Assembly (NCBI GenBank): GCA_951406725.2
Contig: OX597825.1
Coordinates: 17,980,001-18,044,000, forward strand
Length of the DNA: 64,000 bases
Direction of reading: 5' to 3'
DNA from: Octopus vulgaris
Lineage: Eukaryota
Shown here one piece after another: positions 8,311-64,000 of this stretch. The translations under genes and the position numbers were made by a program. The notes below the pieces were generated by a model that was not told the DNA's origin, made no database searches, and worked only from the letters and a program-made list of their open reading frames with translations. How positions within the stretch are numbered: position 1 is the stretch's first letter; each line of letters opens with the position of its first letter.

Positions 8311-8540
8311 TCTTTTACTCTTTCACTTGTTTCAGTCATTTGACTGTGGCCATGCTGGAGCACCACCTTTAGTCGAGCAAATCAACCCCAGGACTTATTC
8401 GTTGTAAGTCTCGTACTTATTCTATCGGTCTCTTTCGCCGAATCGCTAAGTTACGGGGACGTAAACACACCAGCGTTGTTGGGGAGGGGACAAAGACAGA
8501 GACACAAACATATACACACACTTACACATACATACATACA

Positions 8541-8615
<75 letters not shown>

Positions 8616-8782
8616 GTGTATAACACGGATTTATTTCAGTTTCCTTCTATCAAATCCACTCACAAGGCTTTGATCAGCCCGAGGCTATAGAAGACACATG
8701 CCCAAGGTTCCTCGTAGTGGGATTGAACCTGGAATCATGTGGTTCGTAAGCAAGCTACTTACCACGCAGCCACTCTTACCCC
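8311..8782 (-). mobile_element. Family A tRNA/CORE-like SINE with internal (ATAC)n(TA)n tract
   Basis: Reverse complement has A-box GTGGCTGCGTGG, B-box GGTTCAATCCC, CCTTGGGCATGTGTCTTCTA and tail ATGACTGAAACAAGT; more than 12 copies in the window. Confidence 0.9.
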
Positions 8783-8821
8783 TTATACTTTTTATAAAGA
8801 TGTTCCCAGTTTATATCAGAT

Positions 8822-9995: not shown

Positions 9996-10621
9996 TGTAT
10001 GTATATATGTATGTATGTATGCATGTGTGGGTGTACACTCATATGAATAGAAAACCGTTAAAAACAAGAAAGTATATATATTTGTTTGTATGCTTGTGTG
10101 TGTATGTGTGTGTGTGTGTGCGTGTGTGTGCATGTGTGCGTAAATGAATACATTTACATTCAAACCTACACAGGCAAAGACACACACACACGTATATACA
10201 CTCTCCACCACACGTATTTATCTATATATATACACGCATCTTCATATATATATAACAAATAGAAAAGAGCATGATGTTGGCTTTATATTTACCGGATATC
10301 ACTGGAGTTTCATGTACGTCATGTATACCAGTGATCGGCCATATGACATATAAATAGCTAAATTCTGTAAAGAACGATAGGGTAAAATTCTGATTGCACT
10401 TGGAATTTACAACGAAGCGGAGTCAGCGAAATTCAGCAACAAAATGGGTGACAGAAAATGTGTGTATATCACTGCTATGGTTTTATGGAACCCACAGTGT
10501 GACATCACCCAACTGTACTTACACCCAAAATATTGTTGTAACTAAACATTAGGAATAATTACAAGTACTTCTGACGTTGTAAGACTCTCAGATAAAATCC
10601 GTCTGTTTACGGCAATTAAAT

Positions 10622-10797
10622 GTTACATTATTGACATTATTTATATTTGACGGATACTTGTTTCGGCTGATATACCCTCCGGCCTTCATCGAGTGTCTTG
10701 GGGAAACGGCGTAGTGGTTAAGAGCGCGGTCTACTAACCCCAATTAAGATCGCGGTCTACTAACCCCAGTTCGATTCCAGGAATTGACCTAAATAAT

Positions 10798-10867
<70 letters not shown>

Positions 10868-11016
10868 TCGAAAAATACCTTAGACATTGGAACCTAGGTT
10901 CACAATTTCCCCAAGATACCTGATGAAAGCTAGAGGGTATATCAGACGAAACGTTGTGTTAATCAACAATAAAGATGAGGACATATATAATTCCTCACCC
11001 TTAAATATAGAAATGT
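10622..11016 (+). mobile_element. Composite element: inverted HHR-bearing repeats flanking a tRNA-like head and (AAT)n
   Basis: 10660-10706 is the reverse complement of 10906-10952; A-box GGCGTAGTGGTT at 10708; B-box GTTCGATTCC at 10769-10778; possible TSD AATTAAAT at 10614 and 11017. Confidence 0.75.
10915..10960 (+). ncRNA. Minimal type I hammerhead ribozyme motif (stem II decayed in this copy)
   Basis: GATAC-CTGATGA-(stem II)-GAAA-C-GTT-GTGTT; stem I GAUAC/GUGUU pairs with wobbles; palindromic AACGTT stem III is typical of PLE minimal HHRs. Confidence 0.6.
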
Positions 11017-11109
11017 AATTAAATAGTAGTCATAGAATATTTAGAAAGTGGAGGAAATTTATACAGATTTTGTGTTTTCACTACGCCCGAGACATTAAAT
11101 CTTGTACGA

Positions 11110-11508
11110 AGGCGGTGAGCTGGCGAAATGCTTAGCGGTATTTCGTCTGCCGCTACGTTCTGAGTTCAAATTCCGCCGAGGTTAACTTTGCCGTTCATCC
11201 TTTCGGGGTCGATAAATTAAGTACCAGTTACGCACTGGGGTCGATATAATCGACTTCATCCGTTTGTCTGTCATTGTTTGTCCTCTCTGTGTTTAGCCCC
11301 TTGTGGGTAGTAAAGAAATAGAAATAGGAACTTGGTCTGTCTTTACGTTCTGAGTTCAAATTCCGCCGAGGTCGACTTTGCCTTTCATCCTTTCAGGGTC
11401 GATAAATTAAGTACCAGTTACGTACTGGAGTCGGTCTTATCTGCTGCCTCCCTGCTCCCCCCCCAAAAAAAAAAAATTTCGGGCCTTCTGCCTAGTGTAG
11501 AAAAGAAT
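11110..11508 (+). mobile_element. Family B tRNA-derived SINE (Meta/MESC-like central domain), dimeric
   Basis: GGCGGTGAGCTGGC head; GAGTTCAAATTCC B-box; GCCTTTCATCCTTTCGGGGTCGATAAATTAAGTACC-like domain present twice. Confidence 0.88.
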
Positions 11509-19784: not shown

Positions 19785-20380
19785 GGAGCAGGAGTGGCTG
19801 TGTGAAGCAACATCTGATAGCCTGGTCGGTCACGTGATCACATGGTTAATGTAATAGACTTTCTGACTCCAAATGTCGCTGGGTAAGACTTCGCCTTTCA
19901 TTCTTTCGGGGTCGATTAAATAAGTACCGGTTGAGTGCTAGGGTCGATGTAATCGACTTACCCACCCCAACAAATTTGCTGACCATGTTCCATAATAGAT
20001 TAGACTTGCCTACCAACCGCATGATTCCGGGTTCAATTCCACTGCATGGCACCTTGGACAAGAGTCTTCTACTATAGCCTCGGGCCGAACAAAGCGTTGT
20101 GAGGGGATTGGGTAGACGGAAAGTGAAAGAAGCCCTTCGTATATATGTATATATGTGTGTGTGTATTTGAGTGTATGTGCTTGTCCCCTCAACATCACTT
20201 GACAGCCGAAGCTGGTGTGTTTACGTCCCCATAACTTAGCGATTCGGCAAAAGAGGCCGATAGAATAAGTACTAAGCTTACAAAGAATAAGACCTGGGGA
20301 CGATTTGCTCGACTAAAGGCGGTGCTCCAGCATGGCCGCAGTCAAATGACTGAAACAAGGAAAAGAGAGAAAGAAAGAGA
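19785..20380 (+). mobile_element. Family A SINE, head interrupted by a ~195-bp insertion
   Basis: GGAGCAGGAGTGGCTGTGTG at 19785-19804 resumes at ~20001 (CTTGCCTACCAACC). Confidence 0.85.
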
Positions 20381-20924: not shown

Positions 20925-21060
20925 TGAGACAATCCCAGCAAATTTCTGGGAGAGGGTAAGTCGATTACATCGACCCTAGCACTGAACCGGTAATTATTTA
21001 CTCGACCCCGAAAGAATGAAAGGCGAAGTCTTACCCAGCGGCATTTGAACTCAGAATGTC
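20925..21060 (-). mobile_element. Family B SINE fragment
   Basis: TCGACCCCGAAAGAATGAAAGGC and TTTGAACTCAG are the reverse complement of the family B domain and B-box. Confidence 0.8.
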
Positions 21061-21612: not shown

Positions 21613-23699
21613 TAGTGTGATATATTAAAACACAGCATACACTGTTATATAAATACACAAGATTATATAAATATAACTGTGTATAGTATAAAATAATACA
21701 ATTTGAGAGAATCTAATGCAAAATGACAATGCATCTGTGTTAGTTAAAATTAGCGTGGAATGAACTTTTTGTGACCTCCAAAACAAAAAGGAAGCGAAGG
21801 AGAAAATGCTAACTATTCGGTCCTGGTGATAATGGCTACGGTTTTAAAGAATAGCAACGATGGTGGTAATGATGGGTGTGGGTGAATGATGATGAGCAGG
21901 AAAAAAAAACGGCTGAGGAGGGCGTTGGCACCGGTGGTGGTTGTTGTGATAATGAGGATAATGATTATGGCATTCCTGGTGTTTTCGTTGTTAGGTGGTG
22001 TTAATGTGTATCTTCTTGATAACATTTAATATTAAAATGAACGTCTTGGAGATTTTTAGCCGTGTTTGTCATGTTAGTGTTCGTATTGCGATTCTTTATG
22101 TAGTTGTTGGTGGTGTTGCGCTATTGTTGTTGCTGTTGCTGTTGTTAGCGTTGGTGGTTACTTTGTGAATGTATATGTTGAGGTTAGGAGTTTGTTGTGG
22201 AGGGTCGGAAATGGCTATTAATTTTTTTTACTATAGTTATGAGCAAAGGTTGGAAACTATGGAGATATTAATTACTGATGATGATGATGATGATGATGAT
22301 AATGATGAAGATGAAGATGGCAAAAGTGGTGGTTTTTAATGGCGGTGATTTTTGGTGGTGTTGTGGCGGTGGTATTTGTGATGATGATGATGATGATGAT
22401 AGTGATGATGGCGACTTGTTTTGATAATTAAAATAATAAGAAGAAAAAGGAGAAAAAGAAGACGAGCAAGAAGGAGAAGAACAACAATAGCAACAAGAAC
22501 AACTACTACAGGAGCAAAAAATAGATTTAGAATAGAATGAAGATGGTGAAGGTCGAAGGTTATGAAGAATAAATGATCACCACACAAATCCCTCGAAACG
22601 AATATGTGAACAGGAAAACACAGCTTATCTGATACCTATGCGCATGTTCGGTGGTCACACACTAACAATCACTGACATACACAATACACATATATATATA
22701 TATATATATACATACATATACACGCATACACACACAAAAATGCACACACTGTTACGCATTGACAGAAAAGCTAACACACTAACTGACAAAATATATTTCT
22801 TAAAAATACATTCGTGTAAATTGTTTTTAACATATAATTTCTACAGCAACAAGAGGTCGAGAAGTCACAATATAAAAACAATATAACAACTGTATGAAAA
22901 ACATAAGGAAACAATACAAAAAATGATTGGAACATGCTAGGCACACAATGTACAAATTCGATATAAAGGCATAGAAATATAATATAATGAAGGGAAAATT
23001 TAAACAAATATCTACAAAATATGTAATTTTGATTAATTATGGAACCATTGTAAATGTTGAAAAGCCAGATCTTCGGTCTTGGGTTTGTATAAAGTTAATT
23101 ACATTGAACAAAATGTAATATATACATGAATGTATATATATGCACACATCCACAAACACACACACAAACACACACACAGAGAAGAACATGTTCTCGTGAC
23201 TGTGTGTATAGATATATAGAGCATTTGTCCTCAACTATGGTCACCCCCTCAGTGTTAATTTTATAGCAGAGATCGACGCAGTTTAGTTGTGCAAACACGA
23301 AGCAGACTGCATCAGTGAAATATTTGGGCGACTGGAAGAGAGTTAAAATTGCGAACCTGCTCCTTGGAGCATTATGAGGCTTTTGCCCTAACTAAGCTAG
23401 TTAGCCTAACTAAACGCGTATATAAATACATATACATATGTATGTATACACTAATGACTAGTAGGTACGTGGCATTTCGTTATGCAAACATAACATAATC
23501 TAAAGTACGTTAAATGTTTTTATAAGTCACCACGACCTTCTCCCTTAGCAGTGCTTGTTATATTATCTTGTTAAGATCATTTCTTCAGAAGTCATAGCCA
23601 GTACTGATGTTTACATCTGAGGTCTGGATACGAAAGGTTGTAGCAAAACATCAATGCTGGTTATAATTTCTGTAAAAATAATTTAACAATATATATGTA

Positions 23700-25262
23700 C
23701 GCATGTATGTATGTATGTATGTGTGTATGTATGTATGTATGTATGTATGTATGTATATATGTATGTATATATGTATGAATGTATGTATGTATGTATGTAT
23801 GTATGTATGTATGTATGTATGCATGCATGCATGTATGTATGTATGTATGTACGTACATGTATGTATGTATGTATGTATGTATGTATGTATGTATGTATGT
23901 ATGTATGTATGTATGTATGTATGCATGCATGTATGTATGTATGTACGTACGTATGTATGCATGCATGTATGTATGTATGTATGTATGTATGTATGTATGT
24001 ATGTATGTATGTATGTATGCAAGCATGCATGTATGTATGTATGTATGTATGCAAGCATGCATGTATGTATGTATGCATGTATGTATGTATGCATGTATGT
24101 ATGTATGTATGTATGTATGTATGCAAGCATGCATGTATGTATGTATGTATGCATGTATGTATGTATGTACGTATGTATGTATGCATGCATGTATGTACGT
24201 ATGTATGTATGTATGTATGTATGTATGCAAGCATGCATGTATGTATGTATGTATGCATGTATGTATGTATGTATGTATGTATGTATGTATGTATGTATGT
24301 ATGTATGTATGTATGTATGTATGTATGTATGTATGTATGTATGTATGTATGTATGTATGTATGTATGTATGTATGTATGTATGTATGTATGTATGTATGT
24401 ATGTATGTATGTATGTATGGATGGATGCATGTATGTATGTATGTATGTATGTATGTATGTATGTATGCATGCATGTATGTATGTATGTATGTATGTATGT
24501 ATGTATGTATGTATGTATGTATGCATGTATGTATGTATGTATGTATGTATGCAAGCATGCATGTATGTATGTATGTATGTATGTATGCATGTATGTATGT
24601 ATGTATGTATGTATGTATGTATGTATGTATGTATGTATGTATGTATGTATGTATGTATGTATGCATGCATGTATGTATGTATGTATGTATGTATGTATGT
24701 ATGTATGTATGTATGTATGCATGTATGTATGTATGTATGTATGCATGCATGTATGTATGTATGTATGTATGTATGTATGTATGTATGTATGTATGTATGT
24801 ATGTATGTATGTATGTATGTATGTATGTATGTATGTATGTATGTATGTATGTATGTATGTATGTATGCATGTATGTATGTATGTATGTATGTATGTATGT
24901 ATGTATGTATGTATGTATGTATGTATGTATGTATGTATGTATGTATGTATGCATGCATGTATGTATGTATGTATGTATGTATGTATGCAAGCATGCATGT
25001 ATGTATGTATGTATGTATGTATGTATGTATGTATGTATGTATGTATGTATGCATGCATGTATGTATGTATGTATGTATGTATGCAAGCATGCATGTATGT
25101 ATGTATGTATGTATGTATGTATGTACGTATGTATGTATGCATGCATGTATGTATGTATGTATGTATGTATGCATGTATGTATGTATGTATGTATGTATAT
25201 GTGTATATATGTATGTATGTATGAATGTATATATGTATGTACGTATGCATGTATATATGTAT
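23700..25262. repeat. ~1.55-kb (ATGT)n tetranucleotide array
   Basis: Direct inspection; ATGC, AAGC and ACGT variant units. Confidence 0.98.
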
Positions 25263-25361
25263 TTGATTGTGTGTTTGTGCTTGTATGTGTGCACGTAATG
25301 CATATTTTAATTCTCTGCAATAGTATACGAGTGTGTACAATCAGTGTTTGCGTATCTTTTA

Positions 25362-25505
25362 TCTTTTATCTTTTACTTGTTTCAGTCATTTGACTGCGGC
25401 CATGCTGGAGCACCGCCTTTAGTCGAGCAAATCGACCCCGTGACTTATTCTTTGTAAGCCCAGTACTTATTCTATCGGTCTCTTTTGCCGAACCGCTAAG
25501 TGACG
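25362..25505 (-). mobile_element. Family A SINE 3' fragment
   Basis: CTTTTACTTGTTTCAGTCATTTGACTGCGGCCATGCTGGAGCACC. Confidence 0.85.
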
Positions 25506-31121: not shown

Positions 31122-32040
31122 AAAGAGATATTGGTGTATTTCTAGACGGCCATTTTATTTATTTGTCTATTTATTTATTTATTTACCAAATAAACACATG
31201 CACTATACATATTTTGGGCTTCTTTCATCACTCGTATATTATTTTAACTTATGTTCATTGTGCGGAAATCTTGTGTCATGCGTCTGTGACCTCTTCAGCA
31301 ACACCTTTCGCTACGATGTGTCTTCTTTCTCCACTTACTTCATTCTGTTCTTCTAAGACGTGCGCATGCGTTTGTGTCCTTGTTTATTTGTGTGTGTGTG
31401 TGTATGTGTATGAGGATATAGATTTGTGTGTATGCTTGTGTGTGTGTCATAGATTTTAGCTGCAGTGTGGCCTTCTCAGCCCCATCCTCTGCCCCCTTTG
31501 TGCTGCTGCAGTCCTAAGACCCGAGTAAAAATCAATAAAAATGGTACAGTTCCTGTATTCCTTTGAGTATGTGTTTTCGCCCACGGTTTTCTGAATATGG
31601 TAGTTGCTGTTATTTCCATCGTTTTCACCACCGCTGCTGCTGACCGTATCAGTTGTGTTACTGACATCATTATGGCCGTCCATGAAGGTTAATTTTGGTT
31701 TGTGTTTATGTCTGGTTTCGTTTCGTATGTATCCATGGACTTTATATAGTTTTATTTAGTCATTTTATCTATCTCTCTCTTATATTTATTAAAGGTTTGT
31801 GGCAGATATATGTATTTATTTATTTATCTGTTTATATATTGATTTAGTAAGTGGAGGCAGAACACACACGAAGACGAAAAGTATCGCTGAAGAGGTCACA
31901 GATGTGCAACAAATGATTTCCGGACAATGGACATAAGTTATAATAATAAACGGGTGAAGAAAAAATATAGAGAGTGTGGATGTTTATTTGGCAGAAATAA
32001 ATAAATAAATGACCATCCCAAAATACAACAACATTCTTTT
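31122..32040. repeat. Diverged ~200-bp inverted repeat pair
   Basis: 31122-31340 is a diverged reverse complement of 31846-32040 (shared AGTAAGTGGAG, GCTGAAGAGGTCACAGA, ACATAAGTTA.AATAATA, TGTTTATTTGG). Confidence 0.8.
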
Positions 32041-32250
32041 ATTCTTACACTTGTTTCAGTCATTTGACTGCGGCTATGTAGCAGCACCGCCTTTCGTCGA
32101 GCCAATTTTTGTAAGCCTAGGACCTATTCTATCGCTCTTTTTTCCCGAACTGCTATGTTACAAGGACGTAAACATACCAGCATGATTTGTCAAGCGATGG
32201 TGGGGAGATTGACTTAGGCACACAAGTATGTACACCACACACACACACAC

Positions 32251-32317
<67 letters not shown>

Positions 32318-32479
32318 GACGGGATTCTTTGAGTTTCCGTCTACGAAATCCACTCACGAGACTTTGGTCGGCTCGAGGCTATAGTAGAAGACACCTGGCG
32401 AAAGTGCCACGCAGTTAGACTGACCCGGAACCTTGTGGTTGGCAAGCAAGCGACATACCACACAGCCACTCCTGGGCCT
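32037..32479 (-). mobile_element. Family A SINE
   Basis: Same diagnostic blocks as 8311-8782. Confidence 0.88.
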
Positions 32480-32583
32480 ATATATATATCTATTTAATGT
32501 AGGATAAAGTTATTTCGAAAACCAATTTTATCAATGGCCAGCATATAAAAAACACCTTTATATATATATGCATATATATGTAT

Positions 32584-33560: not shown

Positions 33561-33585
33561 CCGAGACATATACGAAAGCCATTCA

Positions 33586-33887
33586 AGGCGCCGAGCTGGC
33601 AGAATCGTTAGCACGCCGGGTGAAATGCTTAGCGGTATTTCGTCTGTCGCTACGTTCTGTGTTCAAATTCCGCCGAGGTCGACTTTGTCAAGCGATGGTG
33701 AGAAGACAGACTCAGGCACACAAACATATATACTTACACATATATTTATATACAAACGACAGGCTTCTTTGAGTTTCATCGTTTCGGGGTCGATAAATAA
33801 AGTACCAGTTTCGCACTGGTGTCGATGTAATCGACTTAATCCGTTTGTCTGTCCTTGTTTGTCTCCTCTTGTAGGCAGTAAAGAAAT
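33586..33887 (+). mobile_element. Family B SINE with an internal family A fragment
   Basis: Family B head and tail; 33685-33777 matches family A minus-strand internal sequence. Confidence 0.85.
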
Positions 33888-35066
33888 ATATATCAAAGCC
33901 AGTATTGGGGGATCCCTAATAATTCGCCGATGCCATTAATCCAGTATGTATTATATTCAATATGTTTATTGTGTGTTAATAGTAAAGAAATTTTATCATT
34001 CCCATACATTTTCACCAAGTTGACATAAGGTTTTTTTTTTAAATTCACTTCACTCTGGATTCATATTCATCCTACTTAAAACACACAATGTAGCTTATGC
34101 GATCCTAAGCAAAAAGACTCTACATATCTACTTGTCAGACGAAATCTCCATAAATTTCCATAAATCTCTGTAAATTGCGAACAAATCTCCATAAATTACC
34201 TCTAAATCTCCATAAAATTGTCCTCGATAGTAAATGCCCGAGAAACAGATGGGATATCTGGGACTATACCATCCTTCATTCTAGCTGTCCTTGATCAACT
34301 TTGATCTGGAGCTAAACAAGAATCCTGATAACGGAACTCATTCGCTATAAAATTATTGTCTAGTATATTATCTAAACATAATTGCCAAGTATATTACCGA
34401 TGTGCTGTATTGTTCTATCATGTCATTACTATGTAAAATCTTCATCTGAGGCATTGTAACACAAACCTCTTTCATATCTCTTAGCACTAACGAGGAAGAT
34501 GTTGTTAAATCTCTTAAGAGACGACACAAGGTCTCATAATGACTGAGATTCTAGCTTCTCATTAGCATGGTTTATCCTTCTGGCACCTGTCTGAGCACCT
34601 TAAGTATATCTTATCTCAAATAGCTTCTCATTTTTTAAACATAATCTTTCGCTCACGTAAGCCGCGTGGGTGAAATTAGGTGGAAAGAAATTGGACGAGA
34701 AAACACCCCGATAGACTAAAAATTTTCTTGCAGGATTGATACCTCAACCCATTTTATCTCTTGGGTGCATGCAGGAAAAATCCACTCCTCTGAAAGGAAG
34801 CAGAGCTGATCGGTAGTGTGTGACACAATATATTGATACTCTGCTATCAATTGTAGTAAATCTCAAACGGCGTAGACAGTGCAGTATTAAAGCATGGGAG
34901 ACCAAAGTAGTTGCCCAGGGACTTCATGGGTCAGAGGTCAAATCTTCATCTGCATACGTCGTCGCTAATTGTCAATAAATAAATACAATAAAGCAAAGTT
35001 CAATGGTTTGTCTGCGAGTCTAAAATGCTGGTGAGACGGACGCATTCGTAGAATATTTTCTAGTCA

Positions 35067-35612
35067 AGGCCGCGAGCTGGTAGAAACGTTAGCACACCGG
35101 GCGAATTGCTCAGCAGTATTTCGTCTGCCTTTACGTTCTGAGTTCAAATTCCGCAGAGGTCGACTTTGCCTTTCATCCTTTCGGGGTCGATAAATTAAGT
35201 ACCAGATACGCACTGGGGTCTATGTAATCGACTTAATCCGTTTGTCTGTCCTTGTTTGTTCTCTCTATATTTAGCCCCTTGTGGGTAGTAAAGAAATAGG
35301 TATTTCGTCTGTCGTTACGTTCTGAGTTCAAATTTCGCCGAGGTCGACTTTGCCTTTTATCCTTTCTGTGTCGTACCAGTTACGCACTGGGGTCGATATA
35401 ATCGACTTAATCCGTTTGTCTGTTCTTGTTTGTCCTTTCTGTGTTTAGCCCCTTGTGGGCAGTACAGAAATAGATATTTCGTCTGCCGCTACGTTCTGAG
35501 TTCAAATTCCGCCGTGGTCGACTTTGCCATTCATCCTTTCGGGGTCGATATAATCAACTTAATCTGTTTGTTTGTCCTCTGTGTGTAGCACCTTGTGGGC
35601 AGTAAAGAAATA
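35067..35612 (+). mobile_element. Family B SINE trimer
   Basis: One head; the body restarts at TATTTCGTCTG at ~35118, 35301 and 35476. Confidence 0.9.
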
Positions 35613-36642
35613 AAGTGTTCTCTAGTTTCTTTTGCTTATCATTGTCGGAAGCCTTGCAATAGAAACGATCACGAGTTTCGTTCTTTTCTCTCTGACTAAA
35701 CCATGAAAGTTATTAGTCATTGAACCACCCTGTATATAAAAGAAAAAATTCTATTGCGTTCAACACCAATGATTCCGATCGTGTGTTACATGCATTTGTG
35801 ACACATTGAAAGATATCGAATTTTTATAGCCTAGCTGGTTTAGATTGCAAAAACAGGCGTACACAAACACACACACTCACAGGCACACACAAACACTCAC
35901 ATACATACACTCGCACACATAATTATTTCTGCGCTTACTGAGTTGCATTGAGTGTGATATTCTATGCTTATTCAGAGATCTAATCAATTCTTTTATGCAT
36001 TATTCTGTATTTTCTTATTAATTCTTATGTCACAGTTATCCTTTATCTTTCCTCATATTGATATTAATTATAAATTAACTTCGCCGTATATTAGTATATG
36101 CTCCACCGTCATTTTCCTACTAATAAATATATATGTATACGAGACGGGAAATATATTTTAAGTGCATTGAATCATTTTGTAAGTACAGTATTATAATAAA
36201 AAACAGAATATGTGAATACGAGTGTTAGGGCTTCTATGTCTGTCAGACTTAAACGCTCATTGACGTTGGATAAAAATCTATAGGGACTCATTCAGTATAT
36301 TTCTTTAATCTTCTATACTTCTGTAATAGTATGTCTTAATTTTTCAGTCAAAAAAATTCAATAGCCGTACGAGATTATATGTATGCAAAACACAAACTCA
36401 GGCACACACAGAGGAAGCTTGTGTGAATTAGTTCGATTTGAAAACATCGCAAGAGATGGACCCTTCATGAAATTGCAGCGACGAGAATGCATAGCTGCAT
36501 ACGGAGCAATGTGTAGTTGCAATTGAAACACATGTTGATCATTGTTATATATGGTGTAGAAAAGGTTTTTAATAAAAAAAAAGTATTAGATGTGAATAAA
36601 TATCCACTCTCTTCTTCGTTTTCAATTATATATATATATACA

Positions 36643-36881
36643 CTCTTTTACTTATTTCAGTCATTTGACTGCGGTCATGCTGGAGCACGGCCTTTAGTCG
36701 AACAAATCGACCCCAGGACTTATTCCTTGTAAGCCTAGTACATATTCTATCTGTCTCTTTGCCGAACCGCTATGTTACGGAGACGTAAACACACCAGCAT
36801 CGGTTGTCAAGAGCGATGTTGGGGTACAAACGCAGACACTCAAACACACACACACACATACATATGCATATACATATATAT

Positions 36882-36944
<63 letters not shown>

Positions 36945-37108
36945 TACGACGGGTTTCTTTCAGTTTCTGTCTATCAAATCCATTCACAAGGCTTGGATCG
37001 ACCGAGGCTATTGTAGAAGACACTTGCCAAAGGTGCCACGCAGTGGGAATGAACTCAGAACCATGTGGTTGTTAAGCAAGCTACTTACCACGCATCCACT
37101 CCTGCGCC
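36643..37108 (-). mobile_element. Family A SINE, full length
   Basis: Diagnostic family A blocks; ends CCACTCCTGCGCC. Confidence 0.9.
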
Positions 37109-37148
37109 TAGAGATATCCGGCCTTGCTCGGGACTAAAATGGCATAGG
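37108..37148 (-). mobile_element. Isolated Helitron-like 3' terminus
   Basis: Minus strand CCCGAGCAAGGCCGGATATCTCTAG; similar to 56070-56097. Confidence 0.5.
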
Positions 37149-37447: not shown

Positions 37448-38240
37448 GACTATAAACGATGCACTATGAATGAGATAGTACCTACTGTCAGTATACACAA
37501 ACAGAGCCCGAACTAAAGTAGCGAAATTGGTGGTTATATCTTTGCTGTATTCATACAGCATAGCATTCTTTAAAACGTAAGTACAATTTTTAGTGTACAG
37601 CTACAAATGTCACGTGAGCGGCGGAGTTGACTGAACAAATCAATTACGTGACGAATATATATTTGATTGATTCTCAAGGGAGTAAAGACCGAATTGCGTA
37701 CCTCTCTATTTGAGCGCAATAAACATTTACTTTGTATAAACTTTTATGACGATGGGCAAAAGAAAGAATCGATCTTAGTACATAATAAGTGCCTATTTAA
37801 TGACGTGGGATGACAGCAAATAATACTAAGGTGAGATAAGAAATCATTGACTTCGAGAATGAAATTAAATAATATTCTCAGTGGCTTCAATTACACGCGT
37901 TTAGTGTTGGTTCTTTGGTTCTTGCTGAATATATTCCAAGGCCTTTAATGTCGAGAGGAGATGATAGTCGCCTATATCGACATTAGTAATTACCTGGAGG
38001 TTTTAGTAGGGAATCCTGAATGGTGAAAAGTAAAGTAGGACTTCAATTTGGGGGATTTGAAATCACAGCTTAAGAGGTGTAAACTTACAGCATGGTGTTT
38101 TGTTCGTTGCTGTTATAATTCAGCCAGAGCACCGCTCGGATGTTAAATATTACTTCTTAGTATTGACTCAATGGCAGTTATTGTGGTGAATTGTAATGGA
38201 CAAAATAGACTTCATCACTTGACGGAATACTAGGTATGGC

Positions 38241-38622
38241 AAGGCGGCGTGCTGGCAGAAACGTTAGCACGCCGGTCGAAATGCTTAGCGGTATTTCGTC
38301 TGTCTTTACGTTCTAAGTTGAAATTCCGCCGAGGTTGACTTTGCATTTCATCCTTTCGGGGCCGATAAATTAAGTACGGGTGAGGCACTGGGGTCGATGT
38401 AATCGACTTAATCCGTTTGTATGTCCTTGTTTGTCCTCTCTGTGTTTAGCCCCCTGTGGGTAGTAAAGAAATAAGTATTTCGGCTGCCGCTACATTCAAA
38501 TTCCGCCAAAATCGACTTTGACATTTATCCTTTCGGAGTCGAGAAATTAATATCAGTTGCGTACTGGGTTTGATCTAATCGACGGGCCCCAAAATGTCGG
38601 GCCATGTGCCAAGAGTAGAAAA
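38241..38622 (+). mobile_element. Family B SINE dimer with 15-bp TSD
   Basis: GGAATACTAGGTATG at 38224-38238 and 38623-38637. Confidence 0.92.
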
Positions 38623-40680: not shown

Positions 40681-41152
40681 TTATTTATACATACATACAA
40701 TCAAACATAAGGATAATCAAAAAGATACAGAGAATCAACGAACAGGTTTAATAGTATCGATCTCTGTATATAAGAATTGATAGCGGTAATATCAAAATAC
40801 GACGATCCGCTATTTCTTAAATAGTTATTTCTCGTTGTAGTAGTAGTAGTTGTTTTTGTTGTTGCTGTTATCGTTCTTGTTTTTAGAAACAGGATTTGTT
40901 TCATCATTGACTACTGTGCATGAAATATGCACTATGCATGCGTAGTCATTACGTGAATTTGATGTGCATATGCGCAGAGCGCAAATATTGATTTTTTTTA
41001 CTTAAGTATGCACAAGCCCAATTGAACACTGGATATGGTTTAGTCAACTGAGTCAGGCTCACTAATTCACTATTGCAGACATTTATTATATTGCTTGTAA
41101 ATGGTACAAAGGTATGATCCTCCATATATATATATATATATATATTCATTTA

Positions 41153-41389
41153 TTCCTTTATTCTTTTAATTGTTTTAGTCATTTGATTGCGGCAATGCTG
41201 GAGCACCGCCTTTAGTCGAGAAAATTGCCCCTAGGGCTTATTCTTTGTGAGCATAGTACTTATTCTATCGAATAAGTTATGGAGATGTAAATACACCAAC
41301 ATCGGTTGCCAAGCCATGTCGGGAGGACAAACTCAGAAAAACAAACATGTAAACACACAGAAACACACACACACACGTATATCTATCTG

Positions 41390-41434
<45 letters not shown>

Positions 41435-41531
41435 ATATATATATATATATATAAATATATATGCACACACACACACATATATATATATATATACATACAT
41501 ACATACATACATACATACATACATACATACA

Positions 41532-46074: not shown

Positions 46075-46552
46075 CAATATACACCACTCTGCTCTTGCTA
46101 CCTCCATCCACTACAAACATACCGACTCACTCTCACACCTTAACTTCTCCTACTCCCACCCTACACACACCAATCTCTCCATCCCTTACTCTCAATCCCT
46201 TCCTCTGTGCAGGCTCTGCAGTGGTAGCCATGATTTGAGACGCAGTCTCAACTCATGGCTTGCTACGTCATCCTTCGTGGATATCCCCTAACCGCTATGC
46301 ACACATCCCTTGCCAGAGCACGTTCAGAGGACCGTGCCTCTGATCTCGCTCCCCAAACTCACCCCGCCGTTGCCCGTCTCCTGCTCACCCTCGCCTACCA
46401 CCGCTCCACACAGACTCCTGAATCGTCCGGTTGAAGAGCTTAGGCTCGAAATCTAAAAATCTTTCTCTCTTTCCTAAGCGTCAAACTAGTACTCGTGCTT
46501 CTTGTAAATACACCGCTCTTCGTCGTTTGCTTTTCTGTAAATTTCAACTATA
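46071..46552 (+). mobile_element. Penelope-like retroelement relic (RT thumb fragment plus pLTR)
   Basis: LATSIHYKHTDSLSHLNFSYSHPTHTNLSIPYSQSLPLCRLCS resembles the PLE motif YxKPTDxxxYLxxxSxHPxxxKxSIPYSQFLRLRRxCS; then RLLLTLAYH (like RIPLVLTYHP); then GAAGAGC-TTAG-GCTC-GAAA. Confidence 0.85.
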
Positions 46553-55199: not shown

Positions 55200-55229
<30 letters not shown>

Positions 55230-55232
<3 letters not shown>

Positions 55233-55441
55233 TTTACTTATTTCAGTCATCTGACCGCGGCCATGCTGGAGCACCGCCTTTTAATCGAGCAACTCGACCC
55301 CGGGACTTATTCTTTTTGTAAGCCCAGTACTTATTCTATCGGTGTCTTTTGCCGAACCGCTAAGTAACGGGGACACAAACACACCAGCATCGGTTGTCAA
55401 GCAATGCTAGTGGGACAAACAGAGACACACAAACACACGCA

Positions 55442-55486
<45 letters not shown>

Positions 55487-55654
55487 GTACGACGGGCTTC
55501 TTTCAGTTTCCGTCTACCAAATCCACTCACAAGGCTTTGGTTAGCCCGAGGCTAGAGTAGAAGACACTTGCCCAAGGTGCCACGCAGTGGGACAGAACCC
55601 GGAACCATGTGGTTTGGTAAACAAGCTACTTACCACACAGCCACTCTTGCGCCT
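55230..55654 (-). mobile_element. Family A SINE, well preserved
   Basis: Full set of diagnostic family A blocks. Confidence 0.92.
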
Positions 55655-55657
55655 ATG

Positions 55658-55714
<57 letters not shown>

Positions 55715-55728
<14 letters not shown>

Positions 55729-59271: not shown

Positions 59272-62200
59272 ACTAACTAGAGCAGGCACGGAGAGCTTTT
59301 TTCCAGATGTGGGCTGTGTGAGACTAACTAGAGCAGACAACGATAGCTTTTTTCCAGATGTGGGCTGTATGAGTCTAACTGGAGCAGGCACGGATAGATT
59401 TTTCCAGATTTGGGGTGTGTGAGTCTAACTAGAGCAAGCACGGGTAGCTTTTCCACAGATGTGGGTTGTATGAGACTAACTAGAGCAGGCACGGATAGCT
59501 TTTTTCCAGATGTGGGCTGTATGAGTCTAAGTAGAGCAGGCACGGATAGCTTTTTTCCAGATGTGGGCTGTGTGACTAACTAGAGCAGGCGCGGATAGCT
59601 TTTTTCCAGATGTGGGCTGTATGAGTCTAACTAGAGCAGGCACGGATAGCTTTTATCCAGATTTGGGCTGTATGAGACTAACTAGAGCAGGCACAGATAG
59701 TTTTTTCCAGATGTGGGCTGTATGAGTCTAAGTAGAGCAGGCACGGAGAGCTTTTTTCCAGATGTGGGCTGTGTGAGACTAACTAGAGCAGGCACGGATA
59801 GCTTTTATCCAGATTTGGGCTGTATGAGACTAACTAGAGCAGGCGCGGATAGCTTTTTTGCAGATGTGGGCTGTATGAGTTTAACTAGAGCAGGCACGGA
59901 TAGCTTTTTTCCAGATTTGAGCTGTATGAGTCTAACTAGAGCAAGCACGGGTAGCTTTTCCACTGATGTGGGTTGTATGAGACTAACTAGAGCAGGCACA
60001 GATAGCTTTTTTCCAGATGTGGGCTGTATGAGTCTAAGTAGAGCAGGCACGGATAGCTTTTTTCCAGTTGTGGGCTGTATGAGTCTAACTAGAGCAGGCA
60101 CGGATAGCTTTTTTCCAGATATGGGCTGTGTAAGTCTAACTAGAGCAAGCACGGATAGCTTTTCCACTGATGTGGGTTGTATGAGACTAACTAGAACAGG
60201 CACGGATAGCTTTTCTCCAGATGTGGGCTGTATGAGGCTAACTAGAGCAGGCACGGATAGCTTTTCTCCAGATGTGGACTGTATGAGGCTAACTAGAGCA
60301 GGCACGGATAGCTTTTATCCAGATTTGGGCTGTATGAGACTAACTAGAGCAGGCACGGATAGCTTTTTTCCAGATTTGGGCTGTGTGAGACTAACTAGAG
60401 CAGGCACGGATAGCTTTTATCCAGATTTGGGCCGTATGAGACTAACTAGAGCAGGCACGGATAGCTTTTATCCAGATGTGGGCTGTATGAGGCTAACTAG
60501 AACAGGCACGTATAGCTTTTATCCAGATTTGGGCTGTGTGAGACTAACTAGAGCAGGCACGGATAGCTTTTATCCAGATTTGGGCTGTATGAGACTAACT
60601 AGAGCAGGCACGGATAGCTTTTATCCAGATGTGGGCTGTATGAGGCTAACTAGAACAGGCACGGATAGCTTTTTTCCAGATTTGGGCTGTGTGAGACTAA
60701 CTAGAGCAGGCACGGATAGCTTTTATCCAGATTTGGGCTGTATGAGACTAACTAGAGCAGGCACGGATAGCTTTTATCCAGATGTGGGCTGTATGAGGCT
60801 AACTAGAACAGGCACGGATAGCTTTTTTCCAGATTTGGGCTGTGTGAGACTAACTAGAGCAGGCACGGATAGCTTTTATCAAGATTTGGGCTGTATGAGA
60901 CTAACTAGAGCAGGCACGGATAGCTTTTATCCAGATGTGGGCTGTATGAGGCTAACTAGAACAGGCATGGATAGCTTTTTTCCAGATTTGGGCTGTGTGA
61001 AACTAACTAGAGCAGGCACGGATAGCTTTTTTCCAGATGTGGGCTGTATGAGTCTAACTAGAGCAGGCACGGATAGCTTTTATCCAGATTTGGGCTGTAT
61101 GAGACTAACTAGAGCAGGCACGGATAGCTTTTTCCAGATGTGGGCTGTATGAGTCTAACTAGAGCAGGCACGGAGAGCTTTTATCCAGATGTGGGCTGTA
61201 TGAGACTAACTAGAGCAGGCACAGATAATTTTTTCCAGATGTGGGCTGTATGAGTCTAAGTAGAGCAGGCACGGATAGCTTTTTTCCAGATGTGGGCTGT
61301 GTGAGACTAACTAGAGCAGGCACGGATAGCTTTTTTCCAGATTTGGGCTGTATGAGTCTAACTAGAGCAAGCACGGGTAGCTTTTCCACTGATGTGGGTT
61401 GTATGAGACTAACTAGAGCAGGCACGGATAGCTTTTTTCCAGATGTGGGCTGTATGAGTCTAAGTAGAGCAAGGCACGGGTAGCTTTTCCACTGATGTGG
61501 GTTGTATGAGACTAACTAGAGCAGGCACAGATAGCTTTTTTCCAGATGTGGGCTGTATGAGTCTAAGTAGAGCAGGCACGGATAGCTTTTTTCCAGATGT
61601 GGGCTGTGTGAGACTAACTAGAGCAGTCGCGGATAGCTTTTCCCAGATGTGGGCTGTATGAGTCTAACTAGAGCAGGCACGGATAGCTTTTTTCCAGATA
61701 TGGGCTGTGTAAGTCTAACTAGAGCAAGCACGGATAGCTTTTCCACTGATGTGGGTTGTATGAGACTAACTAGAACAGGCACGGATAGCTTTTCTCCTGA
61801 TGTGGTCTGTATGAGGCTAACTAGAGCAGGCACGGATAGCTTTTTCCAGATGTGGACTGTATGAGGCTAACTAGAGCAGGCACGGATTGCTTTTATCCAG
61901 ATTTGGGCTGTATGAGACTAACTAGAGCAGGCACGGATAGCTTTTTCCAGATTTGGGCTGTGTGAGACTAACAAGAGCAGGCACGGATAGCTTTTATCCA
62001 GATTTGGGTTGTATGAGACTAACTAGAGCAGGCACGGATAGCTTTTATCCAGATGTGGGCTGTATGAGGCTAACTAGAACAGGCACGGATAGCTTTTATC
62101 CAGATTTGGGCTGTGTGAGACTAACTAGAGCAGGCACGGATAGCTTTTATCCAGATTTGGGCTGTATGAGACTAACTAGAGCAGGCACGGATAGCTTTTA

Positions 62201-64000
62201 CCCAGATGTGGGCTGTATGAGGCTAACTAGAACAGGCACGGATAGCTTTTATCCAGATTTGGGCTGTGTGAGACTAACTAGAGCAGACACGGATAGCTTT
62301 TATCCAGATTTGGGCTGTATGAGACTAAGTAGAGCAGGCACGGATAGCTTTTATCCAGATGTGGGCTGTATGAGGCTAACTAGAACAGGCACGGATAGCT
62401 CTTTTCCAGATTTGGGCTGTGTGAGACTAACTAGAGCAAGCACGGATAGCTTTTCCAGATTTGGGCTGTATGAGACTAACTAGAGCATGCACGAATAGCT
62501 TTTTCCAGATGTGGGCTGTATGAGGCTAACTAGAACAGGCACGGATAGCTTTTTTCCAGATTTAGGCTGTGTGAGACTAACTAGAGCAGGCACGGATAGC
62601 TTTTTTCCAGATTTGGGCTGTGTGAAACTAACTAGAGCAGGCACGGGTAGCTTTTCCACTGATGTGGGTTGTATGAGACTAACTAGAACAGGCACGGATA
62701 GCTTTTCTCCAGATGTGGGCTGTATGAGGCTAACTAGAGCAGGCACGGATAGCTTTTATCCAGATGTGGACTGTATGAGGCTAACTAGAGCAGGCACGGA
62801 TAGCTTTTATCCAGATTTGGGCTGTATGAGACTAACTAGAGCAGGCACGGATAGCTTTTTTCCAGATTTGGGCTGTGTGAGACTAACTAGAGCAGGCACG
62901 GATAGCTTTTATCCAGATTTGGGCTGTATGAGACTAACTAGAGCAGGCACGGATAGCTTTTATCCAGATGTGGGCTGTATGAGGCTAACTAGAACAGGCA
63001 CGGATAGCTTTTATCCAGATTTGGGCTGTGTGAGACTAACTAGAGCAGGCACGGATAGCTTTTATCCAGATTTGGGCTGTATGAGACTAACTAGAGCAGG
63101 CACGGATAGCTTTTATCCAGATGTGGGCTGTATGAGGCTAACTAGAACAGGCACGGATAGCTTTTTCCAGATTTGGGCTGTGTGAGACTAACTAGAGCAG
63201 GCACGGATAGCTTTTATCCAGATTTGGGCTGTATGAGACTAAGTAGAGCAGGCACGGATAGCTTTTATCCAGATGTGGGCTGTATGAGAATAACTAGAAC
63301 AGGCACGGATAGCTCTTTTCCAGATTTGGGCTGTGTGAGACTAACTAGAGCAAGCACGGATAGCTTTTCCAGATTTGGGCTGTATGAGACTAACTAGAGC
63401 AGGCACGGATAGCTTTTATCCAGATGTGGGCTGTATGAGGCTAACTAGAACAGGCACGGATAGCTTTTTTCCAGATTTAGGCTGTGTGAGACTAACTAGA
63501 GCAGGCACGGATAGCTTTTTATCCAGATTTGGGCTGTATGAGACTAACTAGAGCAGGCACGGATAGCTTTTATCCAGATGTGGGCTGTATGAGTCTAACT
63601 AGAACAGGCATGGATAGCTTTTTCCAGATTTGGGCTGTGTGAAACTAACTAGAGCAGGCACGGATAGCTTTTTTCCAGATGTGGGCTGTATGAGTCTAAC
63701 TAGAGCAGGCACGGATAGCTTTTTTCCAGATTTGGGCTGTATGAGACTAACTAGAGCAGGCACAGATAGCTTTTTTCCAGATGTGGGCTGTATGAGTCTA
63801 AGTAGAGCAGGCACGGAGAGCTTTTTCCAGATGTGGGCTGTGTGAGACTAACTAGAGCAGGCACGGATAGCTTTTTTCCAGATTTGGGCTGTATGAGACT
63901 AACTAGAGCAGGCGCGGATAGCTTATTTCCAGATGTGGGCTGTATGAGTTTAACTAGAGCAGGCACGGATAGCTTTTTTCCAGATTTGGGCTGTATGAGT
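59272..64000. repeat. 51-bp minisatellite, ~93 units, continuing past the window end
   Basis: Unit ACTAACTAGAGCAGGCACGGATAGCTTTTTTCCAGATGTGGGCTGTATGAG. Confidence 0.98.

Follow-up and report, generated by a model that had tools for sequence, protein, structure and literature searches.

A candidate tRNA-headed SINE with a Penelope-type hammerhead tail in Octopus vulgaris

Hammerheads in Penelope-like elements and related repeats

The minimal type I hammerheads of Penelope-like elements (PLEs) consist of a 5-bp stem I, the core CUGAUGA, an extra nucleotide, stem II, GAAA and a palindrome that replaces stem III, and in Schistosoma they occur as opposite-strand pairs 100–700 bp apart (PMC4209133). 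The available parts of PMC8557442 and PMC8969392 describe a characteristic insertion signature of PLEs, in which a 5'-truncated copy stands inverted at the 5' end and a tail of 30–40 bp is present at one end only. The sole PLE assayed in vitro, according to the available part of PMC11167929, is that of the anole. Its protein nicks at ATT and starts reverse transcription inside its own RNA, 85–92 nt past the hammerhead cut site (111–118 minus 26), and a second start explains the optional tail; hammerhead cleavage needs the protein, and insertion was normal with dead hammerheads, i.e. cleavage was unnecessary. The same text places the start of the Poseidon_Ac ORF inside the hammerhead.

The repeat family described here resembles MRC1 and the non-autonomous Chlamys PLEs in being short and in having PLE insertion structures, and MRC1-type elements also have the 3' end of an autonomous PLE; unlike the family, Chlamys-type PLEs have no canonical hammerheads, and the available part of the source describes no tRNA head in them (PMC8557442). 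With the EN+ PLEs that carry pLTR hammerheads (PMC4209133; Poseidon_Ac in the available part of PMC11167929) the family shares the minimal hammerhead anatomy, pairs on opposite strands separated by a few hundred bp, an inverted truncated 5' copy and 50–90 nt kept past the cut site. Unlike these elements, it has no RT or GIY-YIG ORF and carries a tRNA-like head and (AAT)n in the position of the ORF.

The schistosome repeats SM-alpha and Sj-alpha were reportedly described as SINE-like retroposons by Ferbeyre in 1998 and Laha in 2000. Like the family, they are short non-coding repeats in which a pol III-type promoter is followed by a type I hammerhead; the SM-alpha hammerhead is active and the repeat is multimeric and released by cleavage, unlike the family, the comparison being one of descriptions (PMC6765202 and PMC8490949, available parts). 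The family in turn differs from SM-alpha in its PLE-type minimal hammerhead, (AAT)n spacer, dispersed copies and PLE-style inverted 5' tails. Non-LTR retrozymes are also short and non-coding, have a type I hammerhead and are proposed to use PLE enzymes, but they form tandem units with a hammerhead in each, and no tRNA head is described for them in the available parts of PMC7229834 and bioRxiv 10.64898/2026.07.22.740005.

The family shares with tRNA-derived SINEs (SINE2) an A/B-box head, short length, lack of coding sequence, very high copy number and a candidate target-site duplication, whereas its tail resembles a PLE pLTR rather than a LINE 3' end and its simple repeat is internal. Octopus SINEs of this kind, OK, OR1 and OR2, were reportedly described by Ohshima and Okada in 1994. 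SINEs are defined as LINE parasites, and in a term search of a systematic SINE–LINE comparison of Repbase the words Penelope, hammerhead and octopus were absent (PMC5786205). The curated 2026 annotation of O. vulgaris assigns 11.7% to SINEs, mostly unclassified, and 6.8% to Penelope-like DNA, and the word hammerhead is absent from the available portion of its text and supplement (PMC13282606). The available parts of PMC4824008, PMC4758252, PMC8967140 and PMC6962438 describe no such element. No PLE-mobilised SINE is reported in the literature that we searched, to which subscription journals, Repbase, Dfam and SINEBase do not belong, and the family is probably already catalogued under some label. 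A pol III promoter with a hammerhead (SM-alpha) and non-autonomous PLEs are already known; the combination found here is that of a tRNA-headed SINE with a PLE tail.

The local unit and its inverted hammerhead parts

The window, i.e. the whole 64,000-nt stretch of O. vulgaris DNA analysed here, is AT-rich animal DNA (21–47% GC in 2-kb bins) with many microsatellites and dispersed repeats. Its 61 open frames of at least 110 aa, inspected by eye, contained no recognisable gene and nothing RT- or GIY-YIG-like. At 59272–63999 lies a 51-bp minisatellite (93 copies, 89% match) whose open frames of up to 483 codons consist of a 17-residue repeat, and the open frames on both strands of 23650–25400 belong to ~1.7 kb of near-pure (ATAC)n, a simple repeat and not a gene. 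Another abundant dispersed repeat family is represented at 8311–8783, 25352–25505, 32033–32496, 36627–37117, 41125–41461 and 55202–55725, and several of its minus-strand copies adjoin (TA)n or CTTTTA runs.

The unit studied here is a decayed, old and inactive relic of a very high-copy repeat. It is ~310 nt long and non-coding, and the locus holds a single sense unit. An earlier note had pointed to inverted copies at 10660–10706 and 10906–10952, to A and B boxes and (AAT)n between them and to AATTAAAT at both ends of the element, and all of these were recovered. The inverted copies are 85.1% identical over 47 nt (E 2e-9); with pure (AAT)n hits removed, the window has no other non-self match. 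Their local alignment score is 59, whereas the best of 2000 shuffles under a dinucleotide model reached 30. The boxes and (AAT)n lie between them by motif position, and AATTAAAT stands at 10614–10621 and 11017–11024. An Rfam search of the locus returned no hammerhead and no tRNA up to E 10, the only matches being microsatellite-driven microRNA and chance hits, and ARAGORN predicted no tRNA gene at the locus. The exact 21-nt pattern 10660–10680 had no matches in viral, metagenome or prokaryote genome contigs.

The tRNA-like pol III head (10707–10790, plus strand) has an A box at 10707–10717 and a B box at 10769–10777, both near consensus. The local spacing between the boxes, 62 nt, is due to a 26-nt duplication (10718–10743/10744–10769); in the family the B box stands 45 nt past the start of the A box, as judged by eye from contigs continuing from 10743. 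The head thus combines pol III A and B boxes at the tRNA-like spacing of a SINE2. Loose ends before 10708 show that the local head lacks the first 13–18 nt of the family, and the query that found no tRNA relative in Rfam (E 10) or ARAGORN was a duplicated and truncated head. The head is followed by the (AAT)n spacer (10792–10865, plus strand), with ~24 units in the sequence, and by a 49-nt linker upstream of the hammerhead (10866–10914, plus strand) that is recognised from loose ends behind 10706; at 10876–10905, a count by eye gave 23 of 30 letters in common with what stands before the hammerhead in other copies. From 10706 to 11067 the sense strand is free of T4 runs.

The right copy, on the plus strand, contains a minimal type I hammerhead motif (10915–10960) with the anatomy described in PMC4209133. 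Stem I (10915–10919/10956–10960; GATAC/GTGTT) has all five pairs, and is followed by the core CTGATGA (10920–10926), an extra A (10927), stem II (10928–10932/10943–10947), GAAA (10948–10951) and then C-GTT. The palindromic AACGTT (10950–10955) occupies the position of stem III. This layout agrees with the earlier reading of the right copy, including a predicted cut after 10955. Every feature of a minimal hammerhead is present, i.e. both core strands, the extra nucleotide, G10.1–C11.1, the palindromic 15.2–16.2 and the 5-bp stem I, and the terminal region thus has the motif that PMC4209133 describes, a trait of non-autonomous PLEs. Stem II is broken, with two of five pairs.

The 3' tail past the cut site (10961–11016, plus strand) begins with family sequence at 10961–10985, recognised from loose ends before 10660; in all, 61 nt are kept past the predicted cut site. 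This right end appears to lack ~24 nt of family sequence that is present in the left copy, and has at 10986–11016 ~30 nt not seen in the left copy, closing in a motif similar to the end of the left copy. The similar motif, of 22–24 nt, is found at 10622–10645 (minus strand) and 10998–11019; this would be compatible with an optional PLE tail lying between two similar RT start sites. The element has neither poly(A) nor a simple repeat at its 3' end. An open stretch of 44 codons at 10884–11015 was searched for a PLE built like Poseidon_Ac, with an ORF that begins within the hammerhead: in what is a weak test, the decayed 44-residue query had no relative among 1.84 billion representatives at E 0.001, and an equally weak word search of 24–77 residue proteins gave no candidate. 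Neither these searches nor the inspection of the window's open frames revealed an autonomous PLE with the same tail. Elsewhere in the window, at 46431–46459 (within 46420–46530), lies a second, unrelated and decayed motif like a minimal hammerhead, in a single copy. It is preceded by a non-microsatellite stretch whose three forward frames show, by eye, no recognisable RT or GIY-YIG, and it may mark the 3' end of a further PLE family.

The left copy lies on the minus strand. Its inverted distal tail (10622–10659), i.e. family sequence downstream of the hammerhead, stands out by a depth of 2.8e4 against 7.7 in the flank (X1), and in X4 and X15 its position, following the cut-site segment, is given by loose ends behind 10661. 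Next to it is the inverted, 5'-truncated hammerhead part (10660–10706), defined by the inverted-pair alignment and by contig comparison, with the 5' strand of stem I at 10697–10693, a damaged core at 10692–10686, stem II at 10684–10680/10669–10665 and GAAA at 10664–10661. The core reads TCGATGA, as had been noted before, with two letters swapped, and stem II has four of five pairs. Between 10660 and 10659, ~29 nt are lost, which removes the cut site and also the stem I 3' strand; this absence had been overlooked. A perfect stem II had earlier been rebuilt by combining the two copies; other copies did not confirm it, 10681 being absent from their listed differences, where absence of a row does not prove sameness, and the stem II of the family may have four or five pairs.

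With stem II broken in the right copy, and the core swapped and the cut site and stem I strand gone in the left one, both local hammerheads look dead and are predicted not to cleave. Being antisense to the head, the left copy is likely to be an insertion by-product and not a second working ribozyme, and the idea of a cassette enclosed by hammerheads is not supported as a working unit, as both copies are broken. A working dimer of the inverted copies was rejected, since they lie on opposite strands and in a read-through RNA they would pair with each other as a single long hairpin, which folds at -119.8 kcal/mol (a value without shuffle control). A MITE with terminal inverted repeats was also rejected, as the inverted junction is not constant from locus to locus and the right arm is internal.

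The two copies of AATTAAAT, on the plus strand, form an ATT-containing 8-bp direct repeat that encloses 10622–11016, the longest direct match at both ends and a candidate target-site duplication. End matches of at least 8 bp arose by chance in 15 of 400 random pairs of non-microsatellite places with a box of the same size, and the 8-mer occurs six times in the window. The left copy of the repeat adjoins the start of family depth (33 at 10612–10622 against 14,607 at 10623–10633 in X1), and the right boundary is defined by the 8-bp repeat alone. About 100 nt downstream of the element, at 11122–11441, lies a tRNA-like SINE of another family, with a tandem duplication of 190 nt inside it; further copies of that family occur at ~33583–33893, 35064–35612, 38240–38583, 19835–19981 and 20936–21059.

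The family in other copies

Contigs from four of the 24 listed public runs aligned at 80% likeness to 10480–10795, a stretch that comprises the flank, inverted tail and head and excludes (AAT)n and the right copy. Two of the runs, X1 (2031 aligned records) and X5 (139), are from organism A, X4 (1727) is from organism B and X15 (2821) from organism D. Head/flank summed depth, which is contig depth and not copy number, came to 29,106 in X1, 931 in X5, 16,159 in X4 and 19,263 in X15; the hammerhead/flank values, likewise contig depth and not copy number, were 65,830, 2,761, 42,864 and 26,686, respectively. The family is very abundant and dispersed. It is short, non-coding, interspersed and high-copy, with diverse 5' flanks, as is usual for SINE2. 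Hammerhead depth is 1.4–3.0 times the head depth, and thus many tails lack an alignable head.

Most copies have an intact core. Positions 10691 and 10692 differ from the window in 146,537 and 144,720, respectively, of a depth of ~155,000 in X1, which gives CUGAUGA; the letters that restore it account for 89–98% of the depth per run, and ~94% of depth carries the intact core. Other copies run past GAAAC into the cut-site segment of the right copy (52 + 26 records in X1), and their hammerhead is preceded by the linker known from the right copy (97 records in X1, 82 in X4 and 143 in X15); these counts cover the loose ends listed, beside which 176 rows were unlisted. They start 13–18 nt upstream of the A box and their flanks beyond this point differ (agreement 0.5–0.6). 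Other copies begin, directly upstream of the A box, with a short perfect hairpin (in X1, two 8-nt arms around 2 nt) that the copy in the window has lost; it may be the master copy's 5' leader or have arisen by folding back at insertion.

Joints between parts of the unit were examined in the same contigs. Two of the six listed joints, both in X5 contigs and with shorter sides of 34 and 36 letters, link the head to the hammerhead in cis and in sense order; the head and the hammerhead part lie on opposite strands of the aligned stretch, which corresponds to the sense head-to-hammerhead order. Linkage in cis across (AAT)n is seen in the copy in the window and in 2 of 139 X5 contigs. The other four listed joints (X4, with a side of 31 letters; X15, with sides of 25, 23 and 27) have the inverted distal tail at the 5' end of the head, joined at four different points. 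One of these meets the 31-letter bridging rule and three fall below it; three of the four contain letters absent from the window and thus represent other loci. The locus and four of the six listed joints therefore show a trait of non-autonomous PLEs, a 5'-truncated inverted copy that adjoins the 5' end and whose junction varies. This copy is found beyond the tRNA-like head, so the head belonged to the copied unit. The junction at 10706 itself was crossed by 16 of the 32 records shown (6711 more were unlisted), several of them with 4–8 gaps and none of those shown with at least 31 letters on both sides. Direct head-to-tail tandems, which characterise non-LTR retrozymes, were found in none of the six listed joints, short contigs limiting their detection.

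Single contigs in X4 and X15 cover the flank and continue for 30 nt in the inverted tail, up to 10652; 5 of 170 and 15 of 128 of their letters differ from the window. This particular insertion is thus likely to be common to organisms A, B and D, and old.

A proposed route and its rivals

Judging from the sequence, the family is probably a tRNA-headed SINE with a PLE pLTR-type tail that is transcribed by pol III and mobilised in trans by the RT and GIY-YIG nuclease of a PLE. Pol III would start just upstream of the A box and read through, as suggested by the lack of a T4 run on the sense strand of 10706–11067. The PLE protein would then bind the pLTR-derived tail and nick AT-rich DNA, and reverse transcription would start inside the RNA, ~50–90 nt past the cut site, making poly(A) or a LINE tail unnecessary. 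At the 5' end, a second, aborted round or a template switch could leave a tail copy that is inverted and 5'-truncated, attached through a short microhomology. The template would be uncleaved RNA: copies retain sequence before as well as after the cut site (at the right end, 61 nt past it; ~50–65 nt at the left, with the gap counted), which also fits the PLE mechanism of the anole, and the self-cut of a single sense hammerhead would part the promoter from the tail. The hammerhead would accordingly act as an inherited recognition fold that cuts at most weakly, as a dimer or with the help of the protein.

In another history, an ordinary tRNA SINE ending in (AAT)n would be a favoured target for truncated 3' ends of PLEs, so that the two parts meet often without moving jointly. 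PLEs are biased towards microsatellites (PMC8557442, available part) and nick ATT (PMC11167929, available part), the hammerhead depth is 1.4–3.0-fold above that of the head, and outside the locus cis linkage was found in two contigs only. However, insertion into (AAT)n would place the tail between (AAT)n and the linker, whereas the inverted tail is found beyond the head, at the locus and at four listed joints, and a single 8-bp direct repeat bounds the whole unit. We consider such targeted nesting unlikely as an account of how copies move; it may be how the family was born. A core that is intact in ~94% of the depth and a palindromic AACGTT available for dimer pairing would also serve the route of SM-alpha and the retrozymes, with pol III multimers cut by hammerheads into monomers that are circularised and then reverse-transcribed. 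SM-alpha does work in this way (PMC6765202, available part) and animal retrozymes descend from PLE pLTRs (bioRxiv 10.64898/2026.07.22.740005, available part). Nevertheless, none of the six listed joints is a tandem, the flanks 5' of the head agree at 0.5–0.6, and the local unit spans head to tail and not cut site to cut site. Moreover, single minimal hammerheads did not cleave and dimers cleaved weakly (PMC4209133), and for the anole PLE the available part of PMC11167929 reports no RNA-seq reads ending at the cut site. This route therefore appears very improbable.

To a non-autonomous PLE that carries a tRNA-like passenger and is copied from pol II read-through transcripts, so that the A and B boxes are not the driver, we likewise give little credence. 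Short non-autonomous PLEs are known, such as MRC1 (PMC8557442, available part) and those of Heliconius (PMC6685494, available part), and many tails are headless, but the 5' end of the family, 13–18 nt upstream of the A box, is where a pol III transcript is expected to start, both boxes are near consensus and at tRNA-like spacing, and the sense strand has no T4 run. In LINEs, L1 twin priming produces 5' inversions, and the family might be an ordinary LINE-mobilised SINE, inverted at the 5' end by this process, whose tail is merely hammerhead-like. Twin priming inverts the 5' part without duplication, whereas the inverted piece in this family duplicates the 3' tail; in addition, every feature of the minimal hammerhead is present and the 3' end is without poly(A) or a simple repeat. 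Even though SINEs normally use LINE tails (PMC5786205) and the tail has no Rfam hammerhead match, a LINE partner seems to us extremely improbable.

The tRNA-headed SINE moved by PLE enzymes is close to what the earlier note had proposed, a ribozyme-bearing, PLE-mobilised SINE. The high copy number, intact core, head–tail linkage and inverted 5' tails support that proposal except for its self-cleaving part: a self-cleaving SINE/retrozyme hybrid is not supported, there being no tandems among the six listed joints, two broken local copies and retention of both sides of the cut site. More tentatively, and with slightly less than even confidence, we suggest that a pol III SINE may have reached tens of thousands of copies through a captured PLE pLTR. 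The minimal hammerhead fold might then be the cis signal for the RT–GIY-YIG protein, and cleavage, assisted by the protein or in a dimer, might be an off-switch that cuts the promoter from the RT start.

The family is abundant enough to matter for the repeat annotation of its host genome. If the proposed route is correct, the definition of SINEs would be widened beyond LINE dependence, as the Penelope enzymes behind a tRNA-headed SINE would be a driver of a third kind, and a short RNA inserted in trans by a PLE protein would define the minimal cis signal. The family also bears on the purpose of PLE hammerheads, because successfully inserted copies retain both sides of the cut site. It would offer thousands of natural variants for testing whether selection on PLE hammerheads concerns catalysis or binding, and the conservation of core, stems and tail over thousands of copies, together with a 300-nt template acting in trans, would separate a need for catalysis from a need for the fold.
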